Below are positions 3,225 to 64,000 of a stretch of DNA of 64,000 nucleotides, in pieces. The stretch's first letter is position 1, and every line of letters starts with the position of its first letter. This stretch comes from Squalus acanthias (Eukaryota): positions 88,414,001 to 88,478,000 of the forward strand of contig CM059432.1 in assembly GCA_030390025.1 (NCBI GenBank). Reading direction: 5' to 3'. A program made the translations under genes and the position numbers. The notes beneath the pieces are model-generated. The model searched no databases, had not been told where the DNA came from, and saw only the letters and a program-made list of their open reading frames with translations.

Positions 3225-3400
3225 GTTTTTAATTTTTGGGCGATGCCGGCAAGACCACATTCATCGCCCATCCCTAGTTACCTTAGTGGGCATTCGGCAT
3301 TAACCATGTCGTGTGGGACTGGAGTCACACGTAGACCAGGCCAGATAGGGGTGGCAGGCTCCCTTCTCTTGTAGGTGTAAAGGATTTCAGTTCACAAATT
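3225..3400 (-). mobile_element. Degenerate short element: body of the tRNA-headed LINE plus its 3' tail
   Basis: cgcccatccctagttacc matches the tail at ~59235; ctggagtcacacgtagaccaggccagatagggg matches the body at ~62180-62215. Confidence 0.55.
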
Positions 3401-7640: not shown

Positions 7641-7850
7641 TTTGTTTTTTAAATTATTCATTCTCAGAATGTGGGCATTGCGGCTAGGCCGGCATTGATT
7701 GCGCATCCCTAGTTGCCTCGAAGTTGGTGGTGGGCCTTCTCCTTGATACAACTGAGTGGCTTCATACGCCATTATAGAAGGCAGCAAAGTGTCAACCTCC
7801 TTGGTGTGAGACTGGGATCACATATAGGCCACTCGGGGTGGGGTGGGGGC
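7641..7850 (-). mobile_element. SINE-like internal-deletion derivative of the tRNA-headed LINE
   Basis: Tail homologous to 59183-59285 is joined at ~7746 to TACAACTGAGTGGCTT, identical to 62131-62146. Confidence 0.7.
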
Positions 7851-11900: not shown

Positions 11901-13063
11901 CAGCCCCAATGTTCCCCCCCCTCCAACCCCCACAATGATCCTCGGGCTGGCCCAGTTGCTTCCCACCCACCCCCCCCCCGATCCTCCGGCCCCGATGCAT
12001 GATTCCCTCCCTCCCTCCCCACCCCCACCCCCTCCCCCCACCGATGCTCTGGCCCTGATTGTTGTTTCTCTCACTCCCTCCCCCCCACTGAAGCTCTGGC
12101 CCCGATCAGTGCTTCTCTCTCTCACATCCCTGCCGATGCTCTGCCCCGATCGTTGCTTCTCACCCTCCTTCCCCTCTACCGATGCTCTGGCCCCGATCTT
12201 CTCTCCCTCCTCCCGTTACCCCGGCCCCGATCTGTGAGGCGAAGTGGACCGCAGTCAGCGATTGCATTGAATGTAAGTAAGTATGAGTGCTGCTGACATT
12301 ATTCAGATTGCAGCCACGTAAGTAATACACAGCGATCGAAAATTATGTCTTATGTCTGTTGTTGCTATGTTATGTCCTATCGGCCATCCCTTTATTTAAG
12401 GCAAACAAGCTGCAGATTTTTATTTTGTTTCCTTTTTTCGGAATTTTTTATTTTGCAAAAAGAAATTGTGCATCCAAGGTCGTCATCTCAACAATTGTGC
12501 AGTTGCAAAGCCATCGGAAATTTCTCAGTCATCGCTGTGTTTGGGACTTAGGCTTTGCGGTAATAGACTGAGCACGGTGGGAACACGATACCATTGATCT
12601 CTTTTGTCATTGACTGATTTTTAATTTATTTTATATATATATATATATATATTGCTGCTCGCCAATATCGGAAAGTACTCGCCAGCCAAAGACTTTCTCA
12701 TGAGAGATTGCTTGTGTGCAAAACAAATCCCCTTAAAATTTTGCTTGGTTGTCGTTTTTCTCCCTCCTCCCAATGCTCCGGCCCCAATCCTCTCTTCCCC
12801 CCACCCCGCATCTTCCTCCGGCCCCCGACCACTCCCTGGTCCCACCCAATCCCTCCCTCCGCAGGCCTACCTGCCCAGAGCCAGCCAGTGCCCCAATCTG
12901 TCTGGCTGCGGGTGGGAAACAGGCTTCCCATTCAAATCAGGCCCTGCCATTAAATTCAGCAGGGCCTGCGGGAAACCCATTCTCCCGGGCTTCCCGACCG
13001 CCTCGGAGCCTCCCCCCACCCCCTCCCCAGCCCTCAACCCTCCTTCCCATTAAAATTCAGTCC
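8990..13063 (+). mobile_element. Harbinger-type MITE inserted in a CR1 3' tail and split by two internal insertions
   Basis: TIRs GGGGGGAATTTTAA / TTAAAATTCAGTCC, flanks tat/tgt; segments 8990-9168, 11671-12232 and 12760-13063 are colinear with 5857-6728. Confidence 0.8.
9171..11670 (+). mobile_element. CR1 LINE (subfamily A), 5'-truncated ORF2 with frameshifts (APE end + RT)
   Basis: VLMGDFNF, ILDLVMSNEP, KSPGPDGFHPRVLKE, NYRSVSL, QHGF, VPQGSVLGP, FADDTK; TGTTCCTATG tail. Confidence 0.95.
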
Positions 13064-28816: not shown

Positions 28817-29464
28817 TTTTTTCTTTATTTGTTCATGGGATGTGGGCGTCGCTGGCAAGGCCAGCATTTGTTGCCCTTGAGAAGGTGGTGGTGAGCAGCC
28901 TTCTTGAACCGCTGCAGTCCGTGTGGTGACGGTAATCCCACAGTGCTGTTCGGGAGGGAGGTCCAGGATTTTGACCCAGCGATGATGAAGGAACGCCGAT
29001 ATACTTCCAAGTCAGGATGGTGTGTGACTTGGAGGGGAACTTGGAGGTGGTGGTGTTCCCATGTGCCTGCTGCCCTTGTTCTTCTAGGTGGTAGAAGTCG
29101 TGGGGTTGGGAGGTGCTGCCGAAGAAGCCTTGGCGAGTTGCTGCAGTGCATCTTGTAGATGGTACACACTGCAGCCACGGTACGCCGGTGGTGGAGGGAG
29201 TTAATGTTTAAGGTGGTGGATGGGGTGTCAATCAAGCGGGCTGCATTGTCTTGGATGGTGTCGAGCTTCTTGAGTGTTGTTGGAGTTGCACTCATCCAGG
29301 CAAGTGGAGAGTTTTCCATCACACTCCTGACTTGTGCCTTGTAGATGGTGGAAAGGCTTTGGGGAGCCAGGAGGTGAGATGCTCGCCACAGAATACGCAA
29401 CCTCTGACCTGCTCTTGTTGCCACAGTATTTGGCTGGTTCAGTTAAGTTTCTGGTCAATGGTAA
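28817..29464 (-). mobile_element. 3' fragment of the tRNA-headed LINE family
   Basis: ORF 28825-29424(-) [41 protein letters not shown]; same tail as the 59183 copy. Confidence 0.9.
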
Positions 29465-48100: not shown

Positions 48101-51100
48101 CTTGTAGCCTAGATATTCAACATGATGTACCTATGGTATGACAAATATACTGAGGGTAAGTAATGCTGCTGGCTGCTATTCAATGACTCAACTGTAATTT
48201 TAGTTACAAATTGTATTCTACCTGTCCTTAAAATTTCCAGAGAAAAATTAGGAAAAATAAAGTTGAAGAAATTGGTGCTGTTCCAAGTTCAGCCAACTTA
48301 AAGTGGCCACTCAGCTAAGTTCCTTCTGGAGACTCTGGCACGAGAACTCAAGATTTATCATAGCTAAAGCTGTTAGATAATGGCATCACATAGCTGTGGG
48401 ATCTGAAACTTCAATCTTTGGATACACTGCTCTGCGACGAAGAATCTAATTTTTAATAAACAATAAGTTGCAGTGACTTTTTTCATTAATATAAAAAGAC
48501 TTGCATTTCGAAAGCGCCTTTCACGACCTCAGGACGTCCCAAAGCACTTTACAGCCAATGAAGTACTTTTGAAGTGTAGTCATTGTTGTAATGTAGGAAA
48601 CTAAGTATAATCGGTACATTCCACTAATGAAAGTTTTTCACAAGTAAAAGAATCTCCATAATGTATCACTATTATTGAACCATAAATTTATTCCATGGCT
48701 CTTATCAATTCAACTTCATTGGTCATTCAGTTCATTACAATTTGTGGGATCTTCTTATGTACCAAGTAGTAAAGTGGTATGTTCGTGTAATTGTTATGGT
48801 ACTGGACTAGCAATCTAAAGGTTGTGAATTTAAATCCTACCAAGTTGTGAAATTAAATTCAATAAATCTGGTAATTTATGGGCTAACATCAGGAAAAATG
48901 ATCAAAAGCTGCTAGGTTGTCATGTCCATCACCCCCAATATTGCTGACTGACCAATACACTACATTTTAAATTCTTGTCTTTTTCTATAAACCCCTCCAT
49001 GGCTCTGCTCTGCCCTGTCTCTACAGCCTTCTGTGTATTCCCACTCCCATTGCCCCACCGTTGATGGCAGAGTTTTCAGCCGCCTCTGTTGTAATGTTTG
49101 GAACTTCTCATCCTTTGCACACCAAAGGTTTCCCCCTCTCAAAACCTCCTCAAGACCTAGCTTTTTGACCAGCTTTCAGTCTTCCTTCCTAGTCTTTCCT
49201 TTTCTGGCTCTGTGTCCATGTTCCTCACAATTATTTATGAAGCCTCTCAGAATGTGTTTCTTTATATTAAAGGCACTCTATAAATATACATTGTTGACAT
49301 GCTCTGAGGTGTTTCTGAGAAATGTAATTAGGTGCTGTATAAATGCATACCTTTACTTTTTTTCTCTAAATAGAAAACATAATCAATTTATCCTGTGTGC
49401 AGCCTGATAATAAGTCAGCTTTCTTTAGAAAGATTTTGAGTGAGTCTTTGGATAACTCAATGGGTAAATGTGCTCTGTGATGTGAAACTAAGCCATAGAG
49501 GCCAGAAAGTCAGTGCTGAGTTAGCTGATCTCTGCTGGGGAGTGCGCTCGGTTGGAGAGCTTGGGCAAGGTAGGGGAAAGGTCAGCTATCGTTCTTGCTT
49601 CTGAGTGCTAAGCAGAGATGCTTACTGGAAAGTGCATGTGCAGCTGTTTCAAAGTGGAACTGACCACTGTAGAAACTATCCCTTTATATAAACAAGAAGG
49701 TTTCTGCAGCACAACACCTGTGAGCTGATCTCACTGAACCACTTCGGGAAGCTTGAAATATTAAAGTGGTTAAAGGCTTTAATGGGATACGGTCTTATTA
49801 ACTTAACTCCAATGATGCATAGACATTACTTTGATCGCCAGCGCATTTAAAATGATAAGTTATAGCTAGTGCTGAGAATTCATGATTTTTAAGGACTTCA
49901 TTTTCACTTTTTTTAATTAGTTTATGGGATGTGGGTGTCGCTGGCAAGGCCAGCATTTATTGCCCATCCCTAATTGCCCTTGAGAAGGTGATGATGAGCC
50001 GCCTTCTTGAACTGCTGCAGTCCATGTGGTGAAGGTACTCCCACAGTGCTGTTAGGTAGGGAGTTCCAGGATTTTGACCCAGCGATGATGAAGGATCAGC
50101 GATATACTTCTAAGTCCGGATGGTGTGTGACTTGGAGGGGAACTTGGAGGTGGTGGTGTTCCCATGCGCCTGCTGCCCTTGTCCTTCTAGGTGGAAGAGG
50201 TTGCGGGTTTGGGAGGTGCTGCCGAAGAAGCCTTGGCGAGTTGTTGCAGTGCATCTTGTAGATGGTACAAACTGCAGCCACGGTACGCCGGTGGTGGAGG
50301 GAGTGAATTTTTAAGGTGGTGGATGGGGTGCCAATCAAGCGGGCTGCTTTGTCCTGGATGGTGTCGAGCTTCTTGAGTGTTGTTGGAGCTGCACTCATCC
50401 AGGCAAGTGGAGAGTATTCCATCACACTCCTGACTTGTGCCTTGTAGATGGTGGAAAAGCTTTGGGGAGTCAGAGGTGAGACACTCGTCACAGAATACCT
50501 AGCCTCTGACCTGCTCTTGTTGCCACAGTATTTATGTGGCTGGTCCAGTTAAGTTTCTGGTCAATGGTGACTCCCAGGATGTTGATGGTGGGGGATTCGG
50601 TGATGGTAATGCCGTTGAATGTCAAGGGGAGGTGGTTAGACTCTCGCTTGTTGGAGATAGTCATTGCCTGGCATTTCTGTGGCACGAATGTTACCTGCCT
50701 CTTATCAGCCCAAGCCTGAACGTCATCCAGGGCATGGACTGCTTCATTATCTGAGGAGTTGTGAATGGCGCTGAACACTGTGCAGTCATCAGCGAACATC
50801 CCCATTTCTGACCTTATGTTGGAGGGAATGTCGTTGGTGAAGCAGCTGAAGATGGTTGGGCCTAGGATACTGCCCTGTGGAACTCCTGCAGCGATATCCT
50901 GGGGCTGTGATGATTGACCTCCAACCACCACAACCATCTTCCTTTGTGCTAGGTATGACTCCAGCCAGTGGAGCATTTTCCCCCCGATTCCCATTGACTT
51001 CAGTTTTACTAGGACTCCTTGATGCCACACTCGGTCAAATGCTGCCTTGATGTCAAGGGCAGTCACTCTCACCTCACCTCTGGAATTCAGCTCCTTTGTC

Positions 51101-54100
51101 CATGTTTGGACCAAGGCTGTAATGAGGTCGGGAGCCGAGTGGTCTTGGCGGAACCCAAACTGTGCATCAGTGAGCAGATTATTGGTGAGTAAGTGCCGCT
51201 TGATAGCACTGTTGATGGCACCTTCCATCACTTGGCTGATGATTGAGAGTAGACTGATGGGGCGGTAATTGGCTGGATTGGATTTGTCCTGCTTTTTGTG
51301 GACAGGCCATACCTGGGCAGTTTGAGTATTTATAAAGCTCATTCCACTGACCAATGCAAAAATCTCAAACTACTTAGGAACACTGACGTATCTCTCTCTC
51401 CCGTTCTTTCATCACTGTGTGAAATCAATATACATTACAGCAACTGGGATTAGGTTCAGACCTGCCTCCGCCTCCATCACCCCATCTCTGGACAGATCAC
51501 CTCCTAGTTCTCCACCAGAAATAATGAAAGGTTACCCTGCCACCAGAAACCTGGCAAAAAAAATGGACTAGAGGATGCCCAAACCCAACTGGTAAAATGT
51601 CTGACAAGGATTTGATACCCCCAGTAGATACAAGGCACCAACTATTTGCAGTGTGTCGCCAGCCACTGACTTCAGGATAGGAACATTTGTGGTTTTCACA
51701 TGCAGAAGAACATCCTCTGCCTCTTCATGTGCGTGCAGCTATCTTTTTACAAGAACAGTAAACTCCCCTGCTCCACTGACTTTGCAGTCTCAGCCATACT
51801 GTTACAAGGTGTTGCTGAGTGTAGGCTCTTCCTCAGGCTACTTTCATGCAATTTCTAGTGCCTGCCTAAGATTGGCATAAGCAGTGGTATAGTGACAGAC
51901 CATCTACCTTGTTCTTTTGCTTGCGGGTGGTACATGATCTGGGGAAGGGGACCCAGCAAGGGGAACAGAGGGTGCATGTCCTCAAAGAAGGGTAGAGACC
52001 TTCAAAAAGTAGATGACCAAATTTGAAATAATTCAAATTGGACAAAATTTAAATGATTTTAGATGAGCCATAAATTGCCCAATTGGAGTCATTTCAACTT
52101 TGGAATTTGTTTTGGACCTGATCTTAACTGGAATTAAGAGCCAGCATTTGATTGCCACTGTTTCCTTGATTTACAGTATCCTGTCACATACTCTATATAG
52201 CTTGGCATCATTTTAAAATGGAAGTGTTATTTATGGGAGCCACATGTTGCCAAACAAGCATACTAACTTTGGCTGACACTAGAAATTTATAGACAGATTT
52301 AAAAAGAGCCATTAATTATACTTTTTAAAGTAATTGTTTTTAACTAATCCTATTGTGCAGTACATTTCCTAACATCATAAATAATAAAAAGCTACCCAAA
52401 ATTTGATGGAGCTTCTACAATTTTGACTTGTTGGTTGGCGGCAAATTAGGGGGTGGAGGGGGGTCATAGAATAAAACTGTTTGAAGCTTAGAACCTAGAC
52501 TAATTAAGATTAATCATACTGTTTTCATTCACAATTGTCAGTATATAGTGTTAGAAATTACTTATTAGTTGCACATTATGTAGTTTTTAACTTCCCTATA
52601 TATGTTGTTGTGAAATTAGGTTGCTTTGTTGAGAGCACATGCCGGGGAACACTTGCTGCTTGGAGTGGCAAAACGATCCATGTTATACAAGGATGTTCTA
52701 TTACTAGGTAAAATTTCCTTCAAATTCATCTTTCTTTCAGGTATCATTTAAAAAATATATATATTCCATAGAACTAATGCACTATAATTATAGTGAGCAA
52801 TTCTTATTTAAAAAAAATACAATACTGACCATTTATTGCCATTTTCAACAGGGAATGATTATGCCATACATCGTAACAGTCCAGAAATGGAAATTAGTCG
52901 GGTGGCAAATAGGATTTTGGATGAGTTGGTGCAACCGTTCCAAGAAATTCAGATAGATGACAATGAATATGCCTGCTTGAAAGCAATTGTTTTCTTTGAT
53001 CCAGGTCTGTACAAATTTTCACATCAGAAAGAACGTTTAGCATTGCATCATTGTGACAAGACATTGTGCCTTCCACTGGAAGTAGCAAATAGTTCGGAAC
53101 CTATCTGATGAATCAAAATTAGAGCTACAAGTTTTAAGAGCCTGAAGTTGAGGTTTGAATTGCTTCTCTACCTTTTGATAATGAAATGCTGTTTTTTTTA
53201 GTCAGGAGAACTAATTTTGCAAAACTGGCATTCCTGGTGGGGAGCCCTGTCTACTCTCCACGCCTGAATTCCCAATATGCGCTCGCAACTAGAAAGACTC
53301 TGTACCAGGAGTGTGATTTTGTAAAATGACCCCTACTATAATGTGTTTAAAATGTGTGCCTTTACACAAATCAGTATTCATGTCACTAATTCCTCCGAAC
53401 TCGAATGGTACCATGAGGTCTCCACCTGTTTGGAGATTTTTTTCTCCCTTCAATAAAATAAAAATTGAAACACCTTTACATGCATGTATTATGAAGCCAG
53501 GCTGTCCCACAGTTTTAGCGGTACATTTTGAAGAGAAATATGCATTTGAAAATGCCTGAATATGTACAAATTAACATTACTCCATATGTGTATGGATTTG
53601 GATAAAAATGTTAGTTGTTCCAATCTAGCAAAAACGAAACAAGTCTTTGTAACAATTATCTCTAGGAAGGTCTGAAAGAGCTCACCGTTGCACCTCCGTC
53701 CATATGAATGGCTGTAGGATCTCACCGGCATGGATAAAACTAGATAAAACAAATAAAAATCAAGTTCAAATTTCAGAGAATTTGGCTGTGGGAACAACCA
53801 TCACGGAAATACCTTTCATTGCTAATCTTAGTATTACTCAACTTATTGAGGGTGATTTTAACTGTGGGTGAAACATTGAAGTCAATGTAAATAAAAATCA
53901 GGAGAGATGTGTAACGGGCGGCTAAATCAATAGCACAGTTTTGCCCTATCACCCAAACTCAAAATTACCTCCGTTAGAACATTTGGTGTACCAGCGAAAG
54001 GAAATTTAAAAGAAACAGGTGGATAGTAACTTGAGATGTTTTAACTACTTTAAAGATGCTATATAAATACAAGCAGTTGTTGTAGTAGAGAATTGTATAT

Positions 54101-57100: not shown

Positions 57101-58564
57101 CCCAAAACTATGCACAATACTCTGACTGCGGACTTATTAAGGTCTTGTACAAGTTTAGCATTACTTCCTTACTTTTTTACTCTATGCCTCCAGGCACGAA
57201 ACTGAGAATTCTGTTTACTTTTTTACGGACATATCTATGTGTACGGTCACCTGTAAAGACATATGTATCTGCACACCAAGATTCCTCTACTCCATTTAAA
57301 ATCTTACTATTGAAGGTCTATTTCCTGTCTCTAGTCGTACTTCAAAAAATGCATTACTGCATTTTTTCTTACATTGCACTGCATTTGCCACCTATCTGCC
57401 TATTTGCATAAAATTCTTTTGTCCAATATTTTAGTAGAGGCATTAACATTTTAAAAATAATTTTTAGGTCCAAGTGGTATCGGATACAGTTGCCTAGTGG
57501 TTATGGTACCAGACTTGTAACCCAGAAATTGTGAGTTTACAATCTCACCATAGTAAATGGTGAAATTAGCCATAAAAGTTTCTGAATTATTATTAAAAAT
57601 TCAACTGGTTCACTAATGTCATTCAGGAAAGCCTGCATCCCTACCCAGTCTGGCCTACATGTGTCTCCACCCCCACACTGTGTGGTTGACTTTTAATCCC
57701 CTCAGTTGTAAAGAATTAATACAAAGTTTAAAATAACTTAGACAATCTCAACCCCGTGAGATCCTCCTGGGGACTGGTGTCTAAGTTGGGAGAACTATCT
57801 CACAGACTAGTCAAGCAACAGCCTGATATAGTCGTACTCACAGAATCATATATTTAAAAAAATATATATGCATGATTATTCTATTCTGTAATCCTGGTAT
57901 TTGTATAACTTTGCTCTCACAAATAAAGTAAACACAACTGATCATTAACTCCAGGTAGTGATTGCATCAACTCACCATTGTTTTATTCTTTTAGCAAGGT
58001 ATAGTTGAATGTTCAAGTGGAAGTTTCATGTGACTAGTTAATAAGAATAGTTCAGAAATTATGTATTGTCTTCCGATCACATTGACAAAGTATTCCAGCA
58101 TCAGCTCACATTTTTGTATGGGTGCGTGTACCTCGACTGTAACTTTTACCAGTCCTTTCCAGTTTTAATGAGTGTATAGTTTACAAAAGTACACAATGGA
58201 TATTTACACAGCTGAATATTTGGCATTATATAAAAATTTTAACTGCTCTAATTTTATGTTTAATTACTATGCTTCATTTGTAAACTTACAAAAAATCAAT
58301 TGCATTTTGCCAGAATGGACTGATGTGTTCACCAAAAATTTGGATCTTTTAATGTTAATTCTATAAAGTGCATGTATTTCAAGAAGCATTGTTGTGTGCA
58401 GTACATATTTTAGAATGTTCTTTTATTTCCCTTCTTTGCAGGTACAAGTAGTGACCAATCCCACCTCCATCATCCTGGACACCCTCATGTAGCCCAGGAT
58501 CCAGTAACAGGCCAGACTATTTTGATCAGTTCAATGCCTGCAGCAGTTCACAGTGAACAGATGT
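33012..58564 (+). CDS. HNF4G: Hepatocyte nuclear factor 4 gamma (NR2A2), spliced CDS exons 1-9, 3' end outside window: join(33012..33126,34937..35108,42232..42326,45749..45855,47703..47858,52620..52707,52852..53004,55974..56210,58442..58564)
   Basis: Exons splice in frame via GT-AG (lengths 115,172,95,107,156,88,153,237,123). Encodes the C4 zinc-finger DBD ([28 protein letters not shown]) and the LBD with AF-2 (LLQEMLLGG). [16 protein letters not shown] and [10 protein letters not shown] match gamma rather than alpha or beta. Confidence 0.93.
34937..35108 (+). CDS. HNF4G: HNF4G exon 2 (zinc finger 1)
   Basis: Acceptor ctcactcag; (D)[56 protein letters not shown](R); donor gtacac. Confidence 0.96.
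35813..36907 (-). mobile_element. L2-clade LINE 3' part
   Basis: [25 protein letters not shown] / [26 protein letters not shown]; 3' end aaggcgctatataaatacaagttgtt on the minus strand. Confidence 0.88.
37546..39692 (-). mobile_element. CR1 subfamily A copy with ~375-bp internal deletion, split by a subfamily B copy
   Basis: ORFs 37928-38203 and 38234-38599 closely match 9171-11670; 39607-39692 continues the sequence interrupted at 38750. Confidence 0.92.
38751..39606 (+). mobile_element. CR1 subfamily B, 5'-truncated, nested in the subfamily A copy
   Basis: ORF 38796-39458 [21 protein letters not shown]..; (TTCTTATG)n tail; TTAT at both junctions. Confidence 0.95.
40719..40904. mobile_element. 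186-bp fold-back MITE, AAA TSD
   Basis: aaa|GAGGGTGAAATTCAACTTC...GAAGTTGAATTTCACCCCC|aaa with a palindromic interior; relatives at 53848-53972, 63758-63867, 3599-3707. Confidence 0.85.
42232..42326 (+). CDS. HNF4G: HNF4G exon 3 (zinc finger 2)
   Basis: Acceptor ccctcag; (R)[31 protein letters not shown](A); donor gtaaga. Confidence 0.96.
42361..44280 (+). mobile_element. Harbinger-derived element with two-exon Myb/SANT pseudogene
   Basis: TIRs GGCCTAGAATT / AATCCTGGGCC, flanks aat/cat; frameshifted [38 protein letters not shown], then [13 protein letters not shown] after an acceptor. Confidence 0.75.
45749..45855 (+). CDS. HNF4G: HNF4G exon 4 (T-box/hinge)
   Basis: Acceptor ttctttag; (A)[35 protein letters not shown]; donor gtagag. 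Confidence 0.95.
47703..47858 (+). CDS. HNF4G: HNF4G exon 5 (LBD start); alternative start 47700 via CAGCAG acceptor
   Basis: [52 protein letters not shown]; donor gtaaag. Confidence 0.95.
48925..49300 (+). mobile_element. Old L2 3' fragment
   Basis: L2-like 3' sequence ending ttaaaggcactctataaatatacattgttg. Confidence 0.55.
49908..51323 (-). mobile_element. tRNA-headed LINE family, 5'-truncated RT-containing copy
   Basis: ORF 50488-51354(-) [44 protein letters not shown]. Confidence 0.93.
52620..52707 (+). CDS. HNF4G: HNF4G exon 6
   Basis: Acceptor aaattag; [29 protein letters not shown](G); donor gtaaaa. Confidence 0.95.
52852..53004 (+). CDS. HNF4G: HNF4G exon 7
   Basis: Acceptor ttcaacag; (G)[50 protein letters not shown](D); donor gtctgt. 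Confidence 0.95.
54130..55600 (-). pseudogene. Possible decayed Harbinger Myb-like gene (exon 2 onward), with a CR1 tail at ~54810-54960
   Basis: Minus strand ctgcag|[15 protein letters not shown] from 55424 resembles the post-intron segment at 43265; boundaries uncertain. Confidence 0.4.
55974..56210 (+). CDS. HNF4G: HNF4G exon 8 (AF-2)
   Basis: Acceptor ttcccgcag; (D)[78 protein letters not shown](G); donor gtatgt. Confidence 0.96.
56960..57410 (-). mobile_element. Old CR1 fragment
   Basis: Degenerate reverse complement of the CR1 EYCVQFW region (cccaaaactatgcacaatactc). Confidence 0.6.
57485..57851 (+). mobile_element. 5' fragment of the tRNA-headed LINE (head + body + first APE codons)
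   Basis: Box A-like TTGCCTAGTGG (57490-57500), body CTGGTTCACTAATGTC, then [27 protein letters not shown] (57771-57851). Confidence 0.8.
58442..58564 (+). CDS. HNF4G: HNF4G exon 9 (F domain)
   Basis: Acceptor ctttgcag; (G)[40 protein letters not shown] + T; donor gtaggt. Confidence 0.9.
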
Positions 58565-58684
58565 GTAGGTATTTTTTCCACATATCTGAATGCACATTTT
58601 TAATATGGAATTTTGAATTGGCTGAAACTTTTATGAAAGTATTAGCATCCTCTGTGATGGCAATAGCAATGAGGCAAGAAATAA

Positions 58685-59137
58685 ACAAAGAATTTACATT
58701 TATATAGTGCCTTTCATGTTCTCAGGATGTCCTAAAGTGCTTCACAGCGAATAAGGTACCTTTGAAATTTAGTTACTATTGCATTGTATGGAAATGCAGC
58801 AGCCAATTTGTGCAACGCAAGGTTCCACAAAGAGCAAGGAGAGAAATGGCCAAATAATCTGTTTTAGTGGTGTAGGTTGAGTGTTAAATGTTGGCCAAGA
58901 CACGGAGACCTTCCCCGATCTTTGAATAGTGCAATGAACCTTTTACATCCACTTGAGAGGGCAGCCGGGGATTCGGTTTAACGTCTCATTTGAAAGAAAG
59001 ACAGCACTTTCAACAGTGCAGTACTTCCTCAGTAGGCACTGAAGTATCAGCCTAGGTTATGTGCACAAGTCCCTGGAGTGAACTCACAACTTCTGACTGA
59101 GAGGCGAGAGTACTATCACTGAGCCAAGGCTGACACC
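58685..59137 (-). mobile_element. Deu-domain tRNA-derived SINE with L2-type tail, near full length
   Basis: Minus strand: head gtgtcagccttggctcagtg, central atgagacgttaaaccga..ctgccctctcaagtggatgtaaaag, tail aaggcactatataaatg. Confidence 0.8.
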
Positions 59138-59182
59138 TATAATTTGAGTTACATTACAATGAAATTATATTTACAGTATATA

Positions 59183-62100
59183 TTTTATTATTCGTTCCTG
59201 GATTGTGGGCGTCGCTGGCAAGGCCAGCATTTATTGCCCATCCCTAATTGCCCTTGAGAAGGTGATGGTGAGCCACCTTCCTGAACCGCTTCAGACCTTG
59301 TGGTAAAGGTACTCCCACAGTGCTGTTAGGGAGGGAGTTCCAGGATTTTAACCCAGCGACGATGAAGAAACGGCGACATACTTCCATGTCAGGATGGTGT
59401 GTAACTTGCAGAGGAACTTGCAGGTGATGGTGTTCCCATGCGCTTGCTGCCCTTGTCCTTCTAGGTGGTAGAGGTCGCGGGTTTGGGGAGTGCTGCCGAA
59501 GAAGCCTTGGCGAGCTGCTGCCGTGCATCTTGTAGATGGTACACACTGCAGCCACGGTACGCCGGTGGTGGAGGGAGTGAATGTTTAATGTGATGGATGG
59601 GGTGCCAATCAAGCAGGCTGCTTTGTCCTGGATGGTGTTGAGCTTCTTGAGTGTTGTTGGAGCTGCACTCATCCAGGCAAGTGGAGAGTATTCCATCACA
59701 CTTCTGACTAGTGCCTTGTAGATGGTGGAAAGGCTTTAGGGATTCAGGAGGTGAGACACTCACCGCAGAATACCTAGCCTCTGACCTGCTCTTGTAGCCG
59801 CAGTATTTATGTGGCTGGTCCAGTTTAAGTTTCTGGTCAATGGTGACTCCCAGGTCAATGGTGGACTCGGCGATGGTAATGCCGTTGAATGTCAAGGGGT
59901 GGTGATTAGACTCTCATTTGTTGGAGATACTCATTGCCTGGTACTTGTGTGGTGCGAATGTTACTTGCCACTTATTAGCCCAAGCCTGAATGTTGTCCAG
60001 GTCTTGCTGCATTCGGGCATGGACTGCTTCATTATCTGAGGACTTGCGAATGGAAATGAACACTGTGCAAATATCCCCACTTCTGACCTTATGATGGAGG
60101 GAAGGTCATTGATGAAGCAGCTGAAGATGGTTGGGCCTAGGACACTGCCCTGAGGAACTCCTGCAGTGATGTCCTGGGGCTGAGATGATTGACCTCCAAC
60201 AACCACAACTATCTTCCTTTGTGCTAGGTATGACTCCAGCCAGTGGAGAGCTTTCCCCCTGATTCCCATTGACTTCAATTTTACTAGGGCTCTTTGATGC
60301 CAGACTCGGTCAAATGCTGCTTTGATGTCAAGGGCAGTCACTCTCACCTCACCTCTGGAATTCAGCTCTTTTTTCCATGTTTGGACCAAGGCTGTAATGA
60401 GGTCTGGAGCCAAGTGGTCCTGGTCGAACCCAAACTGAGTATCGATCAGCAGGTTATTGGTGAGTAAGTGCTGCTTGATAGCACTGTCGACGATACCTTC
60501 CATCACTTTGCTGATGACTGAGAGTAGACTGATGGGGCGGTAATTGGTCGGATTGGATTTGTCCTGCTTTTTGTGGACAGTACATACCTGGGCAGTTTTC
60601 CACATTGTCGGATAGATGCCAGTGTTGTAGCTGTACTGGAGCAGCTTGGCTAGAGGCGCGGCTAGTTCTGGAGCACAAGTCTTCAGCACAATAGCCGGGA
60701 TGTTGTCGGGGCCCATAGCCTTTGCTGTATCCAGTGCGCTCAGCCGTTTCCAGATTAAACCTGGAGTGAATCGAATTGGCTGAAGACTGGCTTCTGTGAT
60801 GGTGGGGACTTCAGGAGGAGGCCGATATAGATCATCCACTCGGCACTTCTGGCTGAAGATGGTTGCAAACGCTTCAGTCTTGTCTTTTGCACTTGCGTGT
60901 TGGGCTCCACCATCATTGAGGATGGGGATATTCCTGGAGCCTCCTCCTCCCGTTAGTTGTTTAATGGTCCGCCACCATTCATGACTGGATGTGGCAGGAT
61001 CGCAGAGCTTTGATCTGATTCGTTGATTGTGGGATCGCTTAGCTCTGTCTATAGCATGCTGCTTCTGCTTTTTAGCATGCATCTAGTCCTGTGTTGCAGC
61101 TTCCCCAGGTTGGCACTTCATTTTTAGGTACACCTGGTGCTGCTCCTGGCATGCTCTTCTGCACTCCTCATTGAACCAGGGTTGGTCCCCTGGCTTGATG
61201 GTAATGGTAGAGTGAGAGATATGCCGGGCCATGAGGTTACAGATTGTGGTGGAATACAATTCTGCTGCTGCTGATGGCCCACAGCGCTTCATTGATGCCC
61301 AGTTTTGAGCTGCTAGATCTGTTCTGAATCTATCCCATTTAGCACGGTGGTAGTGCCACACAACACAATGGAGGGTGTCCTCAGTGTGAAGATGAGATTG
61401 TGCGGTGGTCACTCCTACCAATACTGTCATGGACAGATGCATCTGCGACAGTTAGATTGGTGAGGTTGAGGTCAAGTAGGTTTTTCCCTCGTGTTCTCTC
61501 ACCACCTGTCGCAGGCCCATTCTGGCAGCTATGTTCTTCAGGACTCGGCCAGCTCAGTCAGTAGTGGTGCTACCGAGCCACTCTTGGTGATGGACATTGA
61601 AGTCCCCCACCCAGAGAACATTCTGTGCCCTTGCTACCCTCATTGCTTCTTCCAAGTGGTGTTCAACATGGAGGAGTACTGATTCATCAGCTGAGGGAGG
61701 GCGGTAGGTGGTAATCAGCAGGAGGTTTCCTTGCCCATGCTTGAGCTGAATCCATGAGACTTCATGGGGTCTGGAGTCAATTTTGAGGACTCCCAGGGCC
61801 ACTCCTTCCCAACTGTATACCACTGTGCCACCACCTCTGGTGGGTCTGTCCTGCCAGTGGGACAGGACATACCCAGGGATGGTGATGGAGGAGTTTGGGA
61901 CATTGGCTGAAAGGTATGATTCTGTGAGTATGACTATGTCAGGCTATTGCTTGACTAGTCTGTTGGACAGCTCTCCCAATTTTGGCACAAGTTGCCAGAT
62001 GTTAGTGAGGAGGACTTTGCAGGGTCGACTGGGCTGGGTGTGCCTTTGTCGTGTCCGAAGCTGCTGCCAAGGTCGATGCCGGGTGGTCTGTCCGGTTTTA

Positions 62101-62436
62101 TTTTTATTGTTGTTTTTCGTAGCGGTTGTGTACAACTGAGTGGCTTGCTAGGCCATTTCATGGCCCACATTGCTTTGGATCTGGAGTCACATATAGGCCA
62201 GACCAGGTAAGGGAGCAGATTTCCTTCCCTAAAGGACATTAGTGAACCAGATGGGTTTTTACAATAGTTTCATGGTCACCATTACTGATACTAGCTTTTT
62301 GTTCCAGATTTATTTAATTAACTGAATTTAAATTCCCCAGATGCTGTGGTGAGGTTTGAACTCACGTCTCTGGATCATTAGTCCAGGCCTCTGGATTACT
62401 AGTCCAGTAAGCTAACCACTATACTACCGTTCCCGC
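59183..62436 (-). mobile_element. Near-full-length non-LTR retrotransposon (CR1/Jockey-like APE-RT) with a tRNA-derived 5' end
   Basis: APE motifs (TNIWQL..PDIVILTESYL, TTYRPPS, VGDFNVHHQEWL), 373-aa RT ORF 59961-61082, C-terminal ORF 59244-59699; box A 62416-62426, box B 62353-62363. Confidence 0.92.
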
Positions 62437-62487: not shown

Positions 62488-62765
62488 GTCAGTCTGCCCT
62501 CTCAGGTGGATATAAAAGATCCCATGGCACTATTGGAAGAAGAGATGGGGAGTTCTCCAGGTGTCCTGGCCAACATTTATCCCTCAACCAACACCTATCT
62601 GGTCATTTATTTCATTGCAGTTTGTGGGACCTTGCTGTGCACAAAGTGGCTGCCAAGTGGCTACAACAGTGACTACATGTTAAAAATACTTTAGTAGCTG
62701 TAAAATGCTTTTGGACGTCCTCAGGTCATGAAAGGCACTATATAAATAAAAGTTCTTTCTTTTTC
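62488..62765 (+). mobile_element. Deu-domain SINE, 5'-truncated
   Basis: gtctgccctctcaggtggatataaaagatcccatggcactatt...aaggcactatataaataaaagttctttc. Confidence 0.8.
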
Positions 62766-64000
62766 TTTATTGCTTATGGCACAGGTAACACAGAACGTAA
62801 ACTTGAGCACAGGGTCACCTTTAGCACACCAGAAGAATGAGTTGTACCAGGATCCTCTCGGCACCTTGTAGCTGATACCAAATCCTGACCTCGCTCCTGC
62901 CCAGCTGCTACAGTTTAGCATGACTCACCCACACTACAGCTTCTCCTCAAACCAATTCAGTCCATCCCCACTCCATCACAGTGATTAGAAACATCAGCAG
63001 AGAGTTAGCAGTAATCCCAAACCAAATCAATTGTTTACAACAATATTAATTTTCTGATTAAAAAGGTATTAACAGCACTTGGTTTCCTATTTGAATTTGG
63101 GATTAGTGGTTTTGTCTGTTGTAAGTGATTGTTCACACCGTGTGCCTCAGATGTAAGTGGACTACAATCTAATTCAATTAATCAATTGAGACGATGCCAT
63201 GACCAGAGCTAGCAAAATACAGGCAGAACCATGATCGAATGATTATACTTCTGCCATCAAGATACTGCAATGCTTTATTCCTGATACTGTAAAGTTTATT
63301 AACAATGGTATTGTTTTGGTTTTCTTGCCATTCTGTACAGCAAGCATTGTGCATGGATGAGTTAGCATAGCATAAGCGAAATAGGAATAAAAGTGATGAT
63401 GCCACAAAGTGTAAGGTGTATGGTCTTCCCCGATGGTAGTACAGCAATGCCAGATTTGTTCCTGTACAAGGTAGCTTATCATTTCCATTTTTACAAAATC
63501 AGTTTATAATTAGGATGCTGTAGTGTCAAGATTATTTTAATAAAAGTCTAAGCAGATGTGAGCTTGAGAAACATCTCACAGAAAGTCGAGTTTCCAGATA
63601 TAGAATCCTTAAATAAAATTAATAAAATATTTTTTTAGTGTTTTAAATACTTTTTAATGTTATGTATATTTTTGTTAAAAGCTTGAAGATAATGTTCATA
63701 CTAAAGAGACCTTGTTGTTTAGAGTTAGGAAACACCCAAGAGGAAACGCATCAGATTGGGTTAGAGTTTCAACTTGTTGCCCGGGTGTAAACTGGAATTG
63801 CGGATTTACTGCCCATTAGAGAAACCATCTGGTTTTTATTTCTGGGCGGCAAGTTGAAAATCCACCCTATTGTTATTTCTCCCCTTGTTTGTGACTAATG
63901 TATAATAAAATATTATCCACTCTATTGAAAATTTAGAGTGCTGATGTCCCTAGGCTAATGCACAGCTAAATAAAGTGTACCACTGTGCTGCTCAGTCAGC

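Follow-up and report, generated by a model that had tools for sequence, protein, structure and literature searches.

The window analysed here is a stretch of 64,000 nucleotides from Squalus acanthias (GCA_030390025.1, contig CM059432.1, positions 88,414,001 to 88,478,000). Close to one end it holds a 3.25-kb retrotransposon on the minus strand, which begins with a GGG at 62434, rather than at 62436 as the first-pass annotation had it, and finishes in an A-rich end at 59183. The element opens with a tRNA-derived head (62348-62434, including the terminal GGG) that contains a box A and a box B and matches the Rfam tRNA model. Behind it come a body, or 5' untranslated region (62161-62347), and a hairpin (62136-62160) with a 7-nt anticodon-like loop, CUAGCAA, a hypothetical candidate for a PKI-like codon-anticodon mimic. 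Located 12 nt behind the hairpin is an invariant GCT codon in the frame of ORF2 (62121-62123), a candidate non-AUG start point, and this is followed by a basic, Lys/Arg-rich in-frame leader (62022-62120) and by ORF2 proper (59244-62021), which encodes an APE endonuclease and a reverse transcriptase (RT). In the frame overlapping the leader lies a short ORF; the subfamily to which this copy belongs lacks the AUG of that ORF. The element closes with a 3' tail (59183-59260), likely the recognition site of the RT; all of these features are on the minus strand, and both body and tail are common to short derivative SINEs. Pfam places Exo_endo_phos at 61943-61557 and RVT_1 at 61082-59964. The first endonuclease strand starts at 62021, 332 nt after box B, and the single ORF carries both APE and RT, which agrees with the earlier reading of an APE-RT coding region close behind box B and no ORF1.

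This copy is a dead, decayed full-length element. Its identity to the majority sequence of the family is 92.8%, its body has lost 8, 1 and 13 nt in three deletions, and its ORF2 is broken by in-frame stops and frameshifting deletions, one of which (at 60069) hits the RT core. A search for a target site duplication (TSD) around it found none. None of the copies examined is intact, their identity to the majority being 92-97%.

The surroundings are dense in repeats. On either side of the element lies a SINE copy, the two being related and in opposite orientation (58670-59140, minus strand, and 62495-62770, plus strand, with arms at 58683-58781 and 62664-62762); they resemble the Deu-domain SacSINE1. 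Further pieces of the same family in the window are two 5'-truncated copies (49909-51323 and 28820-29462, both minus strand) and a degraded 5' fragment (57602-57850, plus strand), while about 7660-7831 and 3237-3369 (both minus strand) are old truncated copies of the body-plus-tail derivative. A C-rich, minisatellite-like array with units of 34-63 nt occupies 11962-12789. A very young canonical CR1 family was also noted; it was probably active recently, since identity is about 100% over 701 nt in all 40 copies scored and its 966-codon frame is open.

A tRNA-like head as part of a genome-wide unit

The head has box A at 62426-62416 and box B at 62363-62353 on the minus strand, exactly where the first-pass annotation had seen them. 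Either box by itself is no more frequent in the window than chance predicts (7 matches versus 5.98 expected for box A, 11 versus 11.35 for box B). Together the two boxes fit the Rfam tRNA model at 62427-62348 with 26.3 bits (E 0.023), which is under the gathering score of 29 bits and covers model positions 7-64 only; an intact copy reaches an E of 0.0039. ARAGORN reports no tRNA gene in the head, and a full cloverleaf with acceptor stem is not formed. Between the two boxes is a 21-nt tandem duplication (62407-62368). By eye, this duplication can form a hairpin, and in the consensuses of other species the letters differ and pairing is still possible. The loop at the anticodon position of the head reads AGT, which we read as Thr-like. 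The loop of the head (CTAGTAA, 62405-62399) and that of the hairpin in front of the ORF (CTAGCAA, 62150-62144; both minus strand) differ by one base, and because of this the pre-ORF hairpin may be a duplicated tRNA arm.

A query spanning head to endonuclease was compared with the genome, and all 40 scored places, of which the window copy is one, matched it nearly end to end. An unbiased sample came from a search with the endonuclease only, which gave 29 non-self loci among 40 scored. The head is reached in 11 of these (8 contiguous, 2 with internal deletions and 1 interrupted), and the other 18 are 5'-truncated at staggered points, their upstream flanks having no sequence in common except for one 65-nt pair away from the junction. 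No alternative 5' end was found among the 29. Conversely, 27 of 29 loci picked by head and body only continue into ORF2, the tail is present in 28 of 40 head-bearing loci fetched, and the motif at the junction of body and ORF has 3,634 exact matches. The head is thus a family trait that travels through the genome together with body, ORF and tail as a single unit, with the head at the same junction in thousands of copies. The earlier observation is confirmed, and the interpretation placed on it is partly supported.

SINEs with the same head and body do exist, and in a repeat-dense region one of them could have inserted accidentally ahead of a LINE truncated at its 5' end. This reading of the locus is vanishingly improbable and is refuted by the genome-wide sharing of the junction, which recurs in five species as well; moreover, the head here has neither a tail nor a TSD of its own, and neither a different 5' untranslated region with an ORF1 nor a head with a tail of its own was found when we looked for them. 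The first-pass annotation had also proposed TSDs enclosing head and tail as a check. Among 22 testable full-length copies (13 LINE and 9 SINE), only 3 have a match of at least 6 nt, versus 1.0 expected from shuffled pairs; TSDs are useless as a test here, because the family shows none consistently.

Sequence comparison identifies the element as an elasmobranch Zenon (CR1-Zenon) LINE, a family that is abundant in this shark. Zenon LINEs are described from sharks and rays, and all Zenons are reported to lack ORF1 and to have a poly-A tail (PMC13343379); the present element likewise has a single APE and RT ORF without ORF1, and its head-to-tail copies have A-rich ends and no microsatellite tail. 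The first 400 nt of the published SquAca_Zenon-1 match our majority almost letter for letter by eye. Its named relatives are SquAca_Zenon-1, -2 and -3 and the Zenon-1 elements of CarCar, RhiTyp, ScyCan and HypSab, about 3.3 kb long with a single APE-RT ORF, no ORF1 and an A-rich tail; we see no difference in sequence to set our element apart, and by eye the tRNA head stands at the start of each of their seven consensuses, which come from five species of sharks and rays (PMC13343379). In a quick RT tree, which holds no labelled Zenon reference, the element stands apart from the canonical CR1 of the shark, in a 19-row group of unlabelled relatives (SH-aLRT 88). Three predicted shark proteins, P0002 (aldo-keto reductase-like), P0008 (SVEP1-like) and P0010 (GPR139-like), hold pieces of Zenon ORF2 with an identity of 69-88%, either as exonised copies or through errors of annotation.

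The first-pass annotation left it open whether the family had been described. The family, its consensus and the absence of ORF1 are known, and the head is published there as sequence, unremarked: the main text of PMC13343379 does not mention tRNA, promoter, polymerase, translation or start codon, and its supplement does not mention tRNA. Since these terms are absent from the text, the head, the avoidance of T-runs, the missing AUG and the derived SINEs appear to have gone without comment in that paper. A full-text literature search with three motifs of the element returned no paper; Repbase or Dfam may annotate the head. The absence of ORF1 cannot be put down to the head, because all Zenon elements lack it (PMC13343379).

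The further suggestion that the family acquired its head from a tRNA or SINE is plausible, since the head is missing from Zenon of hagfish and coelacanth (first 400 nt, which are also rich in T-runs) and from metagenome relatives: head and body have no blastn match in 80 metagenome loci, where lenient ARAGORN matches looked like noise. The SINEs of this genome, however, resemble deletion products of the LINE rather than a donor, and no donor SINE was identified. No motif of body or tail was found in the searched files of the MetaSINE supplement, and the body was not placed in the Meta, Deu or CORE superfamilies (PMC4824008, PMC5499810).

Among the closest known systems are tRNA-derived SINEs (SINE2), including bipartite LINE-derived ones such as Bov-tA and SINE2-1_ACar (PMC5786205, PMC4494074), which have a box A/B head, a body and a LINE tail. 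The head of Zenon, tRNA-derived with box A and box B, is of the SINE2 kind and the derivative of about 390 nt has the same layout, but in the known cases the head sits on a non-autonomous LINE remnant, whereas here an autonomous LINE carries it. The derivatives are short and non-coding, as SINE2 elements are; the 3.3-kb form is not. A LINE with a tRNA-like sequence has been noted for RTE-1_DAn and elements related to it, of the RTE clade (PMC5786205), a likeness by description only.

T-run depletion, probable Pol III transcription and short derivative SINEs

Pol III terminates when it meets at least four consecutive T. In the Zenon majority sequence (3,307 nt) we count 651 T, 91 TT, 7 TTT and no TTTT, whereas a young CR1 of the same genome (2,900 nt) has 630 T, 155 TT, 39 TTT and six runs of four or more. 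Individual Zenon copies contain 0.18 such runs per kb, compared with 2.73 in 76 other CR1-group segments, a control set of mixed age with Zenon masked. A second comparison used 71 usable ORFs from the 80 metagenome loci. TTTT is present in all 71 of these related ORFs and absent from the Zenon majority, and the ratio of observed to expected TTT is 0.25 in Zenon versus at least 0.64 (median 1.18) in the relatives. The T fraction of the element (0.19-0.20) is lower than in all 71, and Phe makes up 1.9% of its residues, versus a median of 5.0%. The Zenon deficit grows with run length (observed/expected 0.70 for TT, 0.25 for TTT and 0 for TTTT) and is strongest for T, with A- and G-runs undepleted and C-runs mildly so. 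Finally, 65 of 553 singleton changes to T in the 29 full-length copies produce a run of at least three, whereas not one of the 32 shared ones does (p about 0.02).

Because T-runs are depleted, transcription by Pol III gains support that is independent of the head, and a tRNA-type promoter at the 5' end together with T-run avoidance makes it likely. We therefore regard the element as probably an autonomous LINE transcribed by Pol III. Such an RNA would quite probably be uncapped, would have to avoid oligo-T terminators and would end in the flank.

On the contrary reading, the head would be the relic of a capture or would serve Pol II as a promoter, or the elements would ride on host transcripts made by Pol II. 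The T-poor strand would go back to something else, for example the need to avoid splicing or decay signals, or biased mutation in this lineage. Pol II transcription is the general rule for non-LTR retrotransposons, and it has been proposed that the processivity of Pol III keeps elements of this sort from exceeding about 1.3 kb (Kojima 2024; PMC10886601). The long branch of the element in the quick RT tree (0.88) makes a lineage-specific composition possible, the stingray consensus has by eye a degenerate box B, and the absence of TTTT is not significant when TT content is held fixed in dinucleotide shuffles (p 0.22) or in synonymous-codon shuffles (p 0.12; uniform codon choice alone gives p 0.001). 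Against these points, the deficit becomes deeper the longer the run and affects T most; a CR1 of this genome does not show it, and new variants in the source lineages show it as well. By eye, box A and box B persist from species to species despite divergence of the sequence between them. We consider the contrary reading unlikely, and retain Pol III as the probable polymerase. Retroelements with small-RNA-derived Pol III promoters are known in the TRIMp3 group (Cassandra, Helenus and Ajax; PMC10886601), but unlike Zenon these belong to the LTR elements, are non-autonomous, do not code for a protein and reach about 1.3 kb at most.

The derivative elements, of about 390-420 nt, unite head and body with the final 75-100 nt at several junctions; two junction motifs of these short forms have 163 and 509 exact matches. 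Their 5' breakpoints fall between the hairpin and GCT, and their 3' parts include C-terminal codons of ORF2. The simplest reading is that the SINEs arose by repeated internal deletion of the LINE, although tail exchange within one ancestral SINE may be an alternative. On the deletion reading, the RT would bind the 3' tail and copy full-length RNA as well as internally deleted RNAs, and the latter would become SINEs at once because the promoter is inherited. Lepidopteran Zenon offers a parallel in the Persaeus SIDE, short internal-deletion derivatives of a single-ORF Zenon that have arisen more than once; unlike the derivatives here, Persaeus is stated to be without tRNA homology or a Pol III promoter (PMC6740152). 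The short forms also turn up, as loose ends, in contigs of other organisms.

The start of ORF2 translation

The family majority has one open frame of 973 codons, which opens just upstream of GCT. Its first Met is residue 286, beyond the endonuclease, such that no AUG precedes the endonuclease in frame. Variants shared among the 29 full-length copies comprise 50 synonymous and 38 non-synonymous changes and no stops in ORF2, compared with 390, 972 and 54 among singletons. The ORF2 frame was used, under purifying selection, without an upstream in-frame AUG. Because the family lacks a normal start codon, an unusual route of translation may apply; how LINE ORF2 starts without an AUG is described as an open question, and an IGR IRES start in LINEs has been speculated on only (PMC3894237).

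The last ~160 nt of the body are almost invariant in the five published elasmobranch consensuses compared by eye, and AGC in the hairpin loop and the GCT codon vary little apart from CpG decay, while the linker and the bases downstream differ between subfamilies. In 43 of 50 copies, among them 16 of the 23 that vary in length, the distance from GCT to the endonuclease is divisible by 3, a count to be read with the 3- and 6-nt repeats of the leader, which by themselves favour in-frame deletions. By eye, GCT is in frame with the leader in four non-dogfish consensuses and out of frame in the three SquAca consensuses. In relatives the leader begins with a Met and is basic (NKNK in P0004), and the in-frame leader here is similar to it. 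Contigs of four other organisms, which we guess to be RNA and used for sequence variants only, not for starts, strand or level, have the same AGC/GCT pattern.

These features suggest that the conserved body may well recruit ribosomes, with ORF2 beginning in frame at or just after GCU. A more specific version is that AGC in the hairpin loop pairs with GCU as a codon-anticodon mimic, as in the IGR IRESs of dicistroviruses, a tentative analogy that we lean against. The resemblance to the Type 6 dicistrovirus IGR IRES lies in a conserved stretch of ~170 nt that ends in an anticodon-like hairpin beside a non-AUG in-frame codon; it is a resemblance only, since Rfam gives no match to Zenon, and a CAGCC loop, covariation and a demonstrated PKII or PKIII are all lacking (PMC12221177, bioRxiv 10.1101/2024.04.17.590008). 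Geometry and invariance of hairpin and GCU fit a PKI, and one common stem variant of the hairpin retains a G-U pair. However, a 3-nt complement near GCU is expected by chance, the 29 full-length copies show no compensatory change between AGC and GCU, and Rfam IRES models give no match up to an E of 10. The hairpin is no more stable than shuffled sequences (z -0.42), and it is for these three reasons, the ordinary stability, the missing compensatory change and the missing Rfam IRES, that the mimic is rated so low. The whole region folds no better than shuffles either (z 0.35), for a PKII/PKIII ribosome-binding domain with L1.1, SLIV and SLV motifs a helix listing gives no convincing nested pseudoknots, and the hairpin motif has no match in viral contigs. 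Short IGR IRES subtypes may not be covered by Rfam.

A rival account, which would apply whatever the polymerase, starts ORF2 at a conserved out-of-frame AUG (MKPDG...) and gets into the endonuclease frame by slipping -1 at GCA AAG, immediately ahead of the first endonuclease strand. Each of the five species has this AUG in its consensuses, as do 53 of the 102 LINE copies here, and the short frame that it opens overlaps the start of the endonuclease in the -1 phase. By eye there is no canonical slippery heptamer, and cross-species changes in the overlap favour neither frame. The AUG is also absent from a subfamily that accounts for about half of the copies (14 of the 29 full-length ones, including the window copy), whose majority sequence nevertheless has an open frame, with diagnostic differences of 13 synonymous versus 11 non-synonymous, and the AUG-less variant makes up about 50% in contigs of two other organisms. 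Frameshifting from this AUG is unlikely.

On balance, the explanation that we find likely for the whole is that the tRNA-type 5' end of Zenon itself drives Pol III through 3.3 kb and that the AUG-less frame is started cap-independently near the in-frame GCU. The strongest form of this, a retrotransposon outside the Pol II/cap system, made as Pol III RNA, stripped of T-runs and most Phe, started at GCU by a pseudoknot of the dicistrovirus type and giving rise to SINEs by simple internal deletion, would be rather unlikely to hold in its entirety.

In the textbook division, LINEs are transcribed by Pol II and coding, and SINEs are transcribed by Pol III and non-coding. A LINE with a tRNA promoter, kept across sharks and rays, would break this division, if true. 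A long Pol III transcript would then be translated, and the choice of promoter would have reshaped the amino acid content of the encoded protein. It would also provide a direct route for the birth of SINEs, from LINE to SINE by deletion. The start of ORF2 without an AUG is testable in Zenon with a 350-nt fragment.
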